DNA of 64,000 bases from Bacteroidia bacterium (GTDB lineage Bacteria > Bacteroidota > Bacteroidia > NS11-12g > UBA955), in NCBI GenBank assembly GCA_044373665.1, contig JBIPNH010000001.1, positions 19,657 through 83,656 on the forward strand, written 5' to 3'. Made by a program: the position numbers. Below, in pieces: positions 48,001 to 51,000 of this stretch (positions are counted from its first letter, which is position 1; every line of letters starts with the position of its first letter).

Positions 48001-51000
48001 TGTCAAACAACTCACCCCACCAATATTACATTATATCAACTATAAAATCAGGTAAAATTGTAAAAATATATCATATAACATATAAAATTGTAAAAATAAT
48101 GTAAAAATATATTTTTATTAATATAAAATTAGTGAAAAATAGGTATATTTGTAGGCTATTTAATATAAAATGGAAACAAAAGACTATACTACAATTGCAA
48201 AATTTGTTAAAAAAAAACGAAAAGAAACCCACTTGACCCAAGTGGAACTTGCTACAAAAGCAGGGGTAGGTCTTAATTTTGTTAGGGATTTAGAACAAAA
48301 TAAGAAAACATTAAGAATAGATAAAGTCAATGATGTGTTAATCCTTTTTGGACACGAATTGGCGCCAACACCGATAGACAGAGAAAAATTAATCAACAGA
48401 TGACAAGCTACAGAAAAGGTGAAGTTTATGTTCATTATGAATTGGCTGGTTTCATTCAAGAAACTGAGAATGGCTATGAATTTAAATACACAGACGATTA
48501 TTTAAAGCAAGCAAACCCATTGCCTATCAGCAAAACTTTGCCCCTTAGTGTTCAAGCCTATTCAGCCAAAGTGCTATTTCCTTTTTTTGATGGCCTAATT
48601 CCCGAAGGTTGGCTATTAGACATTGCACAAACAAACTGGAAACTTAATTATTCCGATAGAATGGGTTTATTGTTGGCATGTTGTAAAGACTGCATAGGCG
48701 CAGTTAGTGTTGTTGCTATTAAATAACAGTTTTTGCTCTCATAAACACTCTACAAAGAGATGAAAAATTTTAAAAAAAAATACCTAGAAGAAAAAGCACG
48801 CAGATTGTCTGTCAATCAAGTGGAAGAAACGCGTGCTGATTTTTATAGTCAAAATAAATGTTTGTATTGTTATGAAGCAATAGACCAAAAGAAAAGCGAT
48901 TTTCATGAGGCTTGTAATAGAAAAATATTTGGTCAAGCTGAAACACCACTGCTTTCATATTCTAAGGAACAATTGGAAAGTTTAGCTAAAAAAATCATCC
49001 ACAGTCAAATGGCTGTAACAGGGGTTCAGGCAAAAGTTTCTTTGAGCATCCATAGAAAAGAGGAATTGAACGAGGTTAAAAAACTAACCATAGTGGGATT
49101 GTATGGCGATTATATACTAAAGCCACCTTCTGAGCATTATGAGCAATTACCCGAACTAGAACATCTAACCATGAAGTTGGCGCATTTATGTGGTTTAAAG
49201 ACAGTGCCTCATAGCCTTGTGCGATTAAAAGACAAAACCTTGTGTTACATCACCAAACGAGTAGACCGACACAAAAAAGGAAAATTTCATATGGAAGACA
49301 TGTGTCAACTCATAGAAAGATTGACCGAGGATAAATACAAAGGAAGTCATGAACAAGTGGCCAAAACCATCCTAAAATATTCATCAAATCCGATGCTCGA
49401 TGTAAGCAATTTTTATGAATTGGTATTGTTTTGTTTTTTTACGGGCAATGCAGATATGCACTTAAAGAATTTCTCTTTATTGGGCGATTCATTAGGCAAT
49501 TATACATTGTCTCCGGCTTATGATTTGTTAAACACGGCTTTGGTTATAAAATCAGATAAAGAAGAATTGGCTTTAACATTGAATGGCAAAAAAAGTAAAC
49601 TAAAATACAATGATTTTTTAGTGGCTTATGAAACCTCAGGGTTGAGCAAAAAAGTATTGGATAACACTTTAGAAAATTTCAAATATTGCTTATTTGAATT
49701 TGAAACTTTAATTAACAAAAGCTTCTTATCAGATGATTACAAAAAAGGCTATTTGGATTTAATAAAAGAAAGATACCAAAGGTTTGGGTTGCTTTGATTG
49801 ATACAAAATGTTCAAGGAGTTTTAAAAATGAAAAATTCACAAAGGGTTTTTTTTAATTTTCCTCTATTTAAAGATGTTATTTGATAAAAATTTAAATTTT
49901 TTTAAAATCAATAATTGTTAATATGACTAAGCATAGCCATTTTTAAATACTTAAAAACGGTTATAAGTGGTTAAAATTTTTTGTTGGTAATCGAGCACCG
50001 CAACTTTGCACCATCAATTATTTAAAAATTTGTATATTATGAACAATTTAAGAAATCGTGTTTTATTAATCGGCCGATTAGGCGCACAACCAGAAACCAA
50101 AACTTTAGCAAACGGAAGCACATTAACCCGTTTTAATTTAGCCACCTCCGAGTCGTACAAAAATGACAAAGGCGAGCGTATTACAGACACCCAATGGCAC
50201 AACATTACCACTTGGGGTAAAGTAGCAGAACTTGCTGCACAATTGCTTGACAAAGGCAAAGAAGTAGTAGTAGAAGGTAAACTAGTAAGCAGAGCTTACA
50301 CGGACAAAGATGGAGTAAAACGTTACGTTACGGAAATCGTTGCAAACGACCTATTATTGGTGGGTGCTAAAGCACAATAATTAACCATTACTTATGTTGA
50401 AAAAGGGCTGTTCATTGACGAATAGCCCTTTTTTATTTTAAAGATAAAATTTTAGAACCAATTTTACAGTTTAAACATAATTTTAAGTCACAGTTATTTT
50501 GTTTTAATTCAATTAACGCTTGAGAGTCGAAAGCTGTGCGAGAATGTATCCCATACTGCGACCAATGTGTAATAATTTGATTGCTTTCTGATGGCAATTG
50601 GTGTAGAATATTTAGCGCTTTTTGACTGATACTCTCATTGCTTAACAATTGTCCATACACAAATAATACTGGCACAACACTGTTTATCAATACGGATTGC
50701 ATACTCGAAACAGACAAATCTGTGCTGTGCTGTTTACTTTCTTTCCCAAAAACATAATGGGTCTGCCAATACTCACTACCAGGTGATTTAAAGAAATTTA
50801 GAATTTTCTTAACATCCGTTTCTTCTATCACTTGACTCAATAAATGATGGCTGTTATAAATGAGTTTCGAAAATTGCGCCAAACGCATCGTTGGTAAATT
50901 GCCCGGACGCATTCGCATTTGTTTGAACACCGTTTTTTCCATCGCTTTTAAATGGTATTTCTTTGACAAAAATTGCCATTCTTTTCGAAGTGTTTCATGG

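Follow-up and report, generated by a model that had tools for sequence, protein, structure and literature searches.

We analyzed a 64,000-nucleotide stretch of contig JBIPNH010000001.1 from a Bacteroidia bacterium (the window), whose plus strand carries a three-gene operon that an earlier note had read as a tripartite toxin-antitoxin (TA) system of the HipBST type. The note had placed three open reading frames (ORFs) of 77, 108, and 345 amino acids between 48170 and 49797, and they were recovered with exactly these coordinates and sizes. The 4-nt ATGA overlap between the first two was also confirmed by the ORF reading (48400-48403). The genes are as follows.

48170-48403, plus strand: hipB, 77 aa, XRE-type helix-turn-helix (HTH) protein, putative autorepressor (HTH_3, TIGR03070).
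48400-48726, plus strand: hipS, 108 aa, homolog of HipA N-subdomain 1, putative antitoxin (Couple_hipA, TIGR03071).
48760-49797, plus strand: hipT, 345 aa, HipA-family Ser/Thr kinase core, putative toxin (HipA_C; similarity to HipT of Legionella pneumophila).

hipS and hipT are separated by a 33-nt gap, in which neither a promoter box nor a terminator was seen by direct reading or by a sigma-70 promoter/terminator scan. A "terminator" predicted at 48688-48705 lies inside hipS and was regarded as a false positive.

The proposed assignment of the three proteins as an HTH protein, a HipA N-subdomain, and a HipA core was upheld by hidden Markov model (HMM), PDB-sequence, and fold comparisons. In the HMM searches, HipB matched HTH_3 (8.5e-6) and TIGR03070 couple_hipB (8e-21; 73.7 bits, cutoff 71.65). 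The 108-aa HipS showed significant similarity to the HipA N-subdomain (Couple_hipA, 2e-23; TIGR03071, 3e-29), as the note had expected. HipT matched HipA_C (1.5e-43, residues 85-305), and the same search returned no Couple_hipA or N-subdomain 1 match in this protein. The motifs FFDGLIPEGW, CKDCIGAVSV, D-M-H-L-K-N, and LSPAYDLL were all found in the translated ORFs. Unlike a canonical HipBA, the locus does not encode the kinase as a single polypeptide; the kinase is split, and the split is conserved across species.

The best PDB-sequence match of HipT was L. pneumophila HipT, termed HipT(Lp) (7vkb/8ezr/7wcf; 7e-52 over residues 63-343 by phmmer and 7e-67 by profile). Escherichia coli O127 HipT, termed HipT(Ec), gave 3.6e-13 with approximately 20% identity, and HipA gave about 1e-5. 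An AlphaFold2 (AF2) model of HipT, with a mean predicted local distance difference test (pLDDT) value of 69 and a predicted template modeling score (pTM) of 0.76, was compared by Foldseek with 7vkc/7wcf, yielding TM-scores of 0.71-0.80 and identities of 35-41%. The following elements of the kinase core were assigned from alignments.

49012-49035, plus strand: Gly-rich (P-) loop of HipT, A85-V-T87-G-V-Q-A-K92.
49453-49470, plus strand: catalytic loop of HipT, D232-M-H-L-K-N237.
49522-49524, plus strand: Mg2+-binding D255 of HipT, in S-P-A-Y-D-L-L.

D232 aligned with D197 of HipT(Lp), D210 of HipT(Ec), and D309 of HipA, and D255 with D219, D233, and D332, respectively. The catalytic and Mg-binding roles of these residues in HipT(Lp) have been described (PMC10653801). 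All catalytic residues of the 345-aa protein were intact in alignments to HipT(Lp) and HipT(Ec), which agrees with the kinase assignment in the note. Four Hip kinase motifs, V86-K92 (VTGVQAK), R167-x-D169-R170 (RxDR), D232-x-H-x-K-N237, and D255, were invariant in 28/28 diverse homologs. Six residues of HipT(Lp) were found whose mutation weakens the binding of HipS or abolishes it (Zhen et al. 2022, PMC9325769). Five of them (D133, R134, E144, K157, and K201) were kept as D169, R170, E179, K192, and K236, and the sixth, R154, was replaced by T189. The position of the first phospho-Ser (S57 in HipT(Ec), S54 in HipT(Lp)) is occupied by Ala85, and Thr87 at the second position (S59 in HipT(Ec)) is the sole hydroxyl left. 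Most relatives have T-V-T where the window has A-V-T, and (S/T)-Psi-T and Psi-Psi-T are among the HipT loop classes that have been described (PMC10627512). The substitutions S54A and S54D did not affect the toxicity of HipT(Lp).

Proteins homologous to HipT were abundant: at least 7998 clusters of approximately 340-aa HipA_C-only proteins came up in the protein search, many of them named Flavobacterium, Chitinophagaceae, or Bacteroidia. A scan of species-representative genomes gave at least 596 loci with relatives, and the best genome matches to HipT were a Bacteroidota metagenome-assembled genome (MAG; 97%) and a MAG labelled Chitinophaga (92%). The hosts, including Flavobacterium, Chitinophagaceae, Bacteroidales, Prevotella, Hymenobacter, Chlorobium, and Ignavibacteriaceae, nearly all belonged to the Bacteroidota or the Fibrobacteres-Chlorobi-Bacteroidetes (FCB) superphylum. 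Synteny was examined in 80 loci retained out of the at least 596, and homologs of HipB and HipS stood directly upstream of hipT, in the order hipB-hipS-hipT, in 77 of the 80. Of the three exceptions, one is a very short contig, and in the other two loci a single small ORF escaped detection. Thus, the tripartite HipBST-type reading is supported by this gene order as well as by the HMM, PDB-sequence, and fold comparisons.

The note had further stated that the system closely matches that of E. coli O127. The tripartite layout agrees with this statement, but the nearest characterized relative is that of L. pneumophila, as judged from the E-values for HipT and HipS (7e-52 and 2e-14 for L. pneumophila, 3.6e-13 and 4e-10 for E. 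coli). Both HipT and HipS are therefore nearer to their L. pneumophila counterparts than to those of E. coli, and the hosts are mainly FCB members, as expected for the HipBST(Lp)-like subclade. Homologs of HipBST(Lp) were reported to be widely distributed in the FCB superphylum (Lin et al. 2023, PMC10653801). Taken together, 48170-49797 very probably represents an intact HipBST module of the Legionella-like subclade that dominates in Bacteroidota/FCB, with its function assigned by homology.

The best PDB-sequence matches of HipS were HipS(Lp) (2e-14), Haemophilus influenzae HI_0666 (1e-13), and HipS(Ec) (4e-10). HipS carries P68-E69-G70-W71, and PEGW was present in 81/81 related loci. W71 aligned with W65 of HipS(Ec), which plugs a pocket beside the ejected Gly-rich loop; HipS(Lp) has I65/M66 at that place and neutralizes without a Trp (PMC10653801). 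In HipB, the recognition helix reads GVGL-N36-FVR, and the C-terminus (...IDREKLINR) is without an aromatic residue of the HipA-inserting kind. In both characterized HipBST systems, HipS neutralizes the toxin, and HipB represses and does not neutralize (PMC10653801; PMC10627512; PMC9325769). By analogy with these homologs, HipB is a putative autorepressor, HipS a putative antitoxin, and HipT a putative toxin.

Upstream of hipB, four evenly spaced candidate operators and a candidate promoter element were located.

48027-48044, plus strand: operator O4 (distal), TACATT-N6-ACTATA, degenerate 18-bp palindrome at -143 from the hipB ATG, as in relatives.
48067-48084, plus strand: operator O3, TATATC-N6-CATATA, at -103, as in relatives.
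48108-48125, plus strand: operator O2, TATATT-N6-AATATA, perfect palindrome at -62, as in relatives.
48145-48152, plus strand: putative Bacteroidota-type -7 box TATATTTG (TAnnTTTG), from direct reading.
48150-48167, plus strand: operator O1 (proximal), TGTAGG-N6-AATATA, right half perfect and left half degenerate, equivalent to the -20/-22 site of relatives.

In 70/78 loci of the relatives, three to four copies of TATACC-N6-GGTATA were present upstream of hipB. These palindromes lie near -143, -103, -62, and -21 relative to the ATG, with a density of 9.1 per kb in this region versus 0.069 per kb elsewhere in the same loci. Their start-to-start spacing was 40-41 bp in 130 of 145 neighbor pairs. 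The sites of the window (TATATY-N6-RATATA) have diverged half-sites and the same geometry, with a spacing of 40-42 bp, and O2 was the sole site without a mismatch in the 64-kb window. The site of relatives that matches O1 reads TGTAGC-N6-GGTATA or TATACC-N6-GGTATA. TAnnTTTG is the consensus of Bacteroidetes sigma-A promoters. O1 is placed between the -7 box and the hipB ATG, and TAnnTTT[GA] abutted the proximal operator in 51/69 related loci. Direct repeats TAAAATTGTAAAAATA were also considered as operators and were rejected, as comparison showed that the real units are 18-bp palindromes spaced by 40-42 bp.

Across three groups of loci, the recognition helix of HipB covaried with the operator half-sites. 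Wherever the half-sites are GGTATA, the helix contains Arg (GVGL-R-FVR). Asn (GVGL-N-FVR) was found in the window and its close relatives (L001-L006), which have [AC]ATATA half-sites, and in one further locus, L061, whose operators read TA[CT]ATCC-N4-GGATATA. Cys (GVGL-C-FVR) was found in L082, which also has [AC]ATATA half-sites. Hence, at the base beside the TATA core, Arg goes with G, and Asn or Cys with A. Because of this covariation, there is good indirect evidence that HipB reads the palindromic sites, and the pattern looks like a natural specificity switch. In L. pneumophila, HipB binds three evenly spaced 18-nt inverted-repeat operators, with O1 located 24 nt upstream of the hipB ATG, and HipT(Lp), together with HipS, joins the HipB-operator complex (Lin et al. 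2023, PMC10653801).

The N-terminus of HipT, upstream of the kinase core, contains the following elements.

48760-48849, plus strand: subgroup-specific N-terminal extension of HipT, residues 1-30 (homolog alignments, AF2).
48850-48963, plus strand: mini-domain at the HipT N-terminus, residues ~31-68.
48859-48915, plus strand: putative zinc-binding knuckle-plus-helix of HipT, C34-x2-C37-x11-H49-x2-C52 (C2HC; conservation, AF2 model).

The note had drawn attention to this Cys/His cluster as having no known role. This was correct, and the cluster proved to be the feature of greatest interest in the locus; its spacing between C37 and H49, given as x12 in the note, is in fact x11. No mention of zinc or cysteines in HipT or HipA was found in the literature searched. 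Examination of 203 relatives revealed C-x2-C-x(10-14)-H-x2-C in 120/120 close protein homologs and in 83/83 loci; among the latter, the spacer is longer at one locus, and at two the regular expression initially matched an upstream artefact. The consensus was CLYCYxxLxxxExDFHxxC[SN]KK[IF]FG, and C34, C37, H49, and C52 were invariant, including in the alignment of 28 homologs. In most relatives HipT starts at the motif itself (M-x-x-C), with an ATGA overlap with hipS. In the AF2 model, the C2HC region has a pLDDT of 81-87; a short hairpin, with strands at residues 33 and 40, precedes a helix (residues 50-57) extending from H49/C52, and this predicted arrangement matches a zinc knuckle plus helix.

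Full-length profile alignment, the only means by which the HipT(Lp) N-terminus could be aligned, showed that the first Cys is the sole C2HC ligand left in HipT(Lp) MKHCPITYEKISDQENYSQRGLHLL and that the last three ligands are all missing from HipT(Ec). No PDB sequence was matched in a phmmer search with the mini-domain and P-loop together (66 aa). A profile of the 38-residue module gave 279 significant matches among 1.84 billion representatives. The best 150 of these 279 were all N-terminal in proteins of 348 aa or less, and none of these 150 lay inside a longer HipA-like protein or another architecture. The mini-domain was described as "of unknown significance" in the E. coli HipT structure paper; it is ordered in free HipT(Lp) and unresolved in the HipS-HipT(Lp) complex. 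An old FANCL/RING prediction exists for residues 4-28 of Lpg2370, which we suggest may be a relic of the C2HC motif. From the conserved motif and the model, C2HC is probably a structural zinc site in the HipT mini-domain, next to the Gly-rich loop. We read it as structural because the fold persists without the ligands in Proteobacteria.

The extension in front of the mini-domain begins with a near-invariant basic MKN[FY]KKKY, has a predicted helix at residues 2-17, and continues into a highly variable, in-frame linker of approximately 20 residues. It was confined to the subgroup of the window (at least 60% identity); distant relatives (312-316 aa, M-x-x-C start) were without it. The frame stays open through the variable sequence, which argues that the extension is translated. 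Its possible functions are DNA contact or translation initiation in Bacteroidota without a Shine-Dalgarno sequence. In Flavobacterium-type loci, the MKN[YF]KKKY start and the end of hipS share 14 nt. Two A9 runs, 48209-48217 near the hipB start (VKKKRK) and 48773-48781 at the hipT start (KKK), encode Lys-rich stretches; homopolymer tracts of this type can promote slippage.

Here, we propose the following model. A single promoter with the -7 box at 48145-48152 would drive hipB-hipS-hipT, and hipB and hipS would be translationally coupled through the ATGA overlap. A HipB dimer would bind the four 18-bp operators, and the operon would repress itself, since the proximal operator lies between the -7 box and the start codon. 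HipT would be an active HipA-type Ser/Thr kinase that phosphorylates an essential protein, probably in the translation apparatus as with other Hip kinases, and arrests growth. HipS rather than HipB would be the antitoxin, docking on the HipT N-lobe where N-subdomain 1 sits in HipA. It would keep the Gly-rich loop ejected and ATP-incompetent, probably with W71 inserted like W65 of E. coli HipS. HipB would bridge two HipS-HipT heterodimers on DNA, and C2HC most likely binds a structural Zn2+ that stabilizes the mini-domain beside the Gly-rich loop. The gene anatomy, the homology, the conserved residues, the operator array, and the synteny are shown by the present analysis; toxicity, neutralization by HipS, repression by HipB, and zinc binding are inferred from the characterized homologs.

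Several points weigh against this model. No experimental characterization of a Bacteroidota HipBST was found in the literature searched. The identity of HipT to HipT(Lp) is 35-41%, and the confidence of its AF2 model is modest (mean pLDDT 69), falling below 50 around the Gly-rich loop. The role of W71 is uncertain because HipS(Lp) neutralizes without a Trp, and zinc binding is predicted from the motif and its geometry. Regulation of HipT may differ from that in the E. coli and L. pneumophila systems because the first autophosphorylation Ser is Ala (A85). Upstream of hipB, a -33 promoter element is weak or absent; the counts in the sigma-70 promoter/terminator scan were near chance, and the sigma-70 model is not applicable to Bacteroidota. 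The toxicity of HipT(Lp) was not rescued by TrpS, GltX, or PheST; TrpS has been established as the target of E. coli HipT only.

Other explanations of the locus were considered. The split could be a decayed hipA, frameshifted or interrupted into a pair of pseudogenes, since HipS and HipT, taken in this order, are colinear with a full-length HipA and an intact hipBA is present in the same window. This is excluded for practical purposes because the split is conserved: it was kept in 77/80 species with both ORFs intact and with invariant catalytic and interface residues. HipT, moreover, has its own conserved start and a mini-domain missing in HipA, and the mini-domain profile matched no longer HipA-size protein among the best 150 of its 279 matches. 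It is also very improbable that HipB is the true antitoxin and HipS a separately encoded structural lid of the kinase. In HipBA of E. coli K-12 the antitoxin is HipB, and a direct interaction of HipT(Lp) with HipB was seen in yeast two-hybrid and electrophoretic mobility shift assays (PMC10653801). However, HipS neutralizes and HipB does not in both characterized HipBST systems, and the 77-aa HipB of the window, with its short C-terminus lacking an aromatic residue, resembles the 72-aa type of HipB(Lp).

HipT might also be a non-toxic regulatory kinase in a signaling operon, with C2HC serving as a zinc, redox, or nucleic-acid sensor or as a substrate-recognition domain. The C2HC module and basic N-terminal helix are dispensable for the kinase fold, given that HipT(Lp) and HipT(Ec) are without the ligands; genes of DNA repair (mutS, ssb, mutL) surround the locus in its closest relatives, and no target has been established for the HipT(Lp)-like clade. 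We consider this highly unlikely: the DNA-repair synteny is limited to the nearest relatives, HipT(Lp), the closest characterized homolog, shows toxicity in L. pneumophila as well as in E. coli, and an autorepressed three-gene layout is typical of TA modules. Within a toxic HipT, C2HC could still be a zinc/redox switch or, with the basic N-terminal helix, an element for substrate or nucleic-acid recognition that sets the target of the whole HipT(Lp)/FCB clade; in either case the E. coli and Legionella mini-domains would be degenerate relics of an ancestral zinc finger; we think this improbable. Under the switch version, oxidation or zinc loss would unfold the mini-domain and shift the balance between HipS-bound (off) and free (on) HipT, so that oxidative or metal stress would trigger HipT directly. 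The precedent, for the redox-switch idea only, is MqsA, a TA protein with a Cys-rich zinc site, whose proteolysis is regulated by zinc occupancy and oxidation (PMC8808172). The site of MqsA is on the antitoxin rather than the toxin, and there is no sequence or fold relationship, so that the likeness is one of analogy.

A further alternative concerns only the biological role of the module and is compatible with the proposed HipBST mechanism. Instead of persistence or addiction, the module might serve anti-phage abortive infection, with a phage freeing HipT from HipS. HipT and HipS gave weak PADLOC matches (PDC-M03A, 1e-8, and PDC-M03B, 1e-5, respectively), but these low scores reflect nothing more than the HipA_C and Couple_hipA folds in common. 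The module is distributed patchily, in the manner of a cassette whose flanks vary, and Gerdes et al. 2021 present phage defense as a general role of TA modules. The neighbors, however, are housekeeping genes (mutS, ssb, mutL) rather than a defense island, and no phage-related evidence was found. We regard a defense role as unlikely on present evidence.

The HipBST of the window was compared with characterized systems. The L. pneumophila system (Lpg2368-Lpg2370; 7VKB/7VKC/7WCF, 8EZR/8EZS) has the same gene order, a small HipB (72 aa versus 77 aa in the window), and a HipS of approximately 100 aa; the catalytic Asp, the Mg-binding Asp, and RxDR of HipT are identical. Both have several evenly spaced 18-bp palindromic operators, the proximal one approximately 20-24 nt upstream of hipB, but the gaps are 53 bp in L. 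pneumophila and 22-24 bp in the window, and the operator sequences differ. HipT(Lp) has only the first Cys of C2HC and thus no zinc site, reads S-V-Q instead of A-V-T in the P-loop, and is without the approximately 30-aa N-terminal extension; HipS(Lp) has I65/M66 instead of W71/L72. All three lpg genes overlap by 4 bp, whereas the window has the 33-nt gap between hipS and hipT.

The E. coli O127:H6 system (7AB3-7AB5) shares the tripartite organization, P-E-G-W in HipS (W65; W71 in the window), a HipT mini-domain at the N-terminus before the Gly-rich loop, and a hydroxyl at the second P-loop position (S59; T87 in the window). It differs in its 107-aa HipB with an extra N-terminal helix, in the dual phospho-site S57-I-S59 of HipT, and in a mini-domain without Cys/His ligands. 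Canonical HipBA has the same kinase superfamily and catalytic motifs, its N-subdomain 1 corresponds to HipS, and its HTH partner is likewise a repressor that acts at several palindromic operators (TATCC-N8-GGATA in E. coli). Unlike the system in the window, however, its kinase is a single polypeptide without the N-terminal mini-domain, and HipB is the antitoxin.

The note had suggested that such a split system was uncharacterized in this lineage. This holds for experiments, but not for the implied novelty, as FCB-wide homologs had already been reported by Lin et al. (2023). For the same reason, the locus is one more, largely ordinary case of an already catalogued Bacteroidota clade. In Gerdes et al. 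2021, 34 "Bacteriodetes" kinases are counted, and the main text holds no Bacteroidetes HipT entries. As an annotation, the locus itself matters little, and its by-products are of modest specialist value for Hip kinase researchers. Three details appear to be new: the C2HC mini-domain, the operator array of 40-41-bp spacing with the HipB covariation, and the subgroup extension with the A-V-T loop. The invariant C2HC of FCB HipTs offers a testable zinc hypothesis and suggests that the two crystallized HipTs are degenerate versions. The covariation between operators and the HipB residue is a ready-made specificity-swap experiment, and Bacteroidota homologs from tractable hosts such as Flavobacterium are alternative systems for finding the target of HipT(Lp)-like kinases.

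The window also contains a canonical hipBA (15029-16669, minus strand), 32 kb from hipBST.

15029-16315, minus strand: full-length HipA, 428 aa (Couple_hipA 4.9e-17, HipA_C 4.9e-53).
16319-16669, minus strand: HTH partner of the full-length HipA, 116 aa, directly upstream.

The note had stated that the HipS motifs FFDGLIPEGW and CKDCIGAVSV are also present in the N-terminus of this HipA. They are not literally there, and pairwise BLAST with HipS gave E = 4.9, so that the two are related at the family level only; both match Couple_hipA. The similarity of HipT to the full-length HipA was limited to the catalytic core (30% over 125 aa). Full-length HipA-like ORFs were also located within a few kb of hipBST in three related loci (L027, L045, and L075). 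In Bacteroides uniformis, HipBA lies next to a HipBST(Lp) homolog and was used as a search seed (Lin et al. 2023, PMC10653801).

The operon is flanked by mutS upstream and by ssb, DUF2851, and mutL downstream, an arrangement common to the nearest relatives only and variable elsewhere. Homology between strains starts at 48016-48025, just upstream of O4, and one close relative diverges right after hipT; for these reasons, approximately 48016-49797 behaves as a cassette. This locus was also considered as a PADLOC PDC-M03 candidate system and was rejected, as the matches were too weak. In the closest genome relative (L006, 5039-9035; HipT 97% identical), mutS is upstream as in the window and the sequence diverges completely right after the hipT stop, which suggests that the DNA was rearranged, or the MAG wrongly joined, at the edge of the cassette.

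The segment that separates mutS from the hipBST operators (46203-48016) varies among strains. It contains two paralogous minus-strand ORFs (46339-47013 and 47022-47711) that resemble outer-membrane beta-barrel proteins and have weak OMP_b-brl_2 matches. It was present in L001 and absent from L002, L003, L004, and L006, in which mutS stands almost directly before the operator array. At its right edge, directly before the operators, three CTCACCC/GGGTGAG copies (47936-48017) can form alternative hairpins (47936-47949/47974-47987 and 47975-47987/48005-48017), and no repeats of this element beyond chance were found elsewhere in the 64-kb window. No Rfam families or tRNAs were found in 45500-50500. 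Downstream of hipT, the ssb ORF (50006-50380) encodes 124 aa from a TTG start. On identical contigs the gene was called with 113 aa, and translation therefore probably begins at the internal ATG (MNNLRNRV...).

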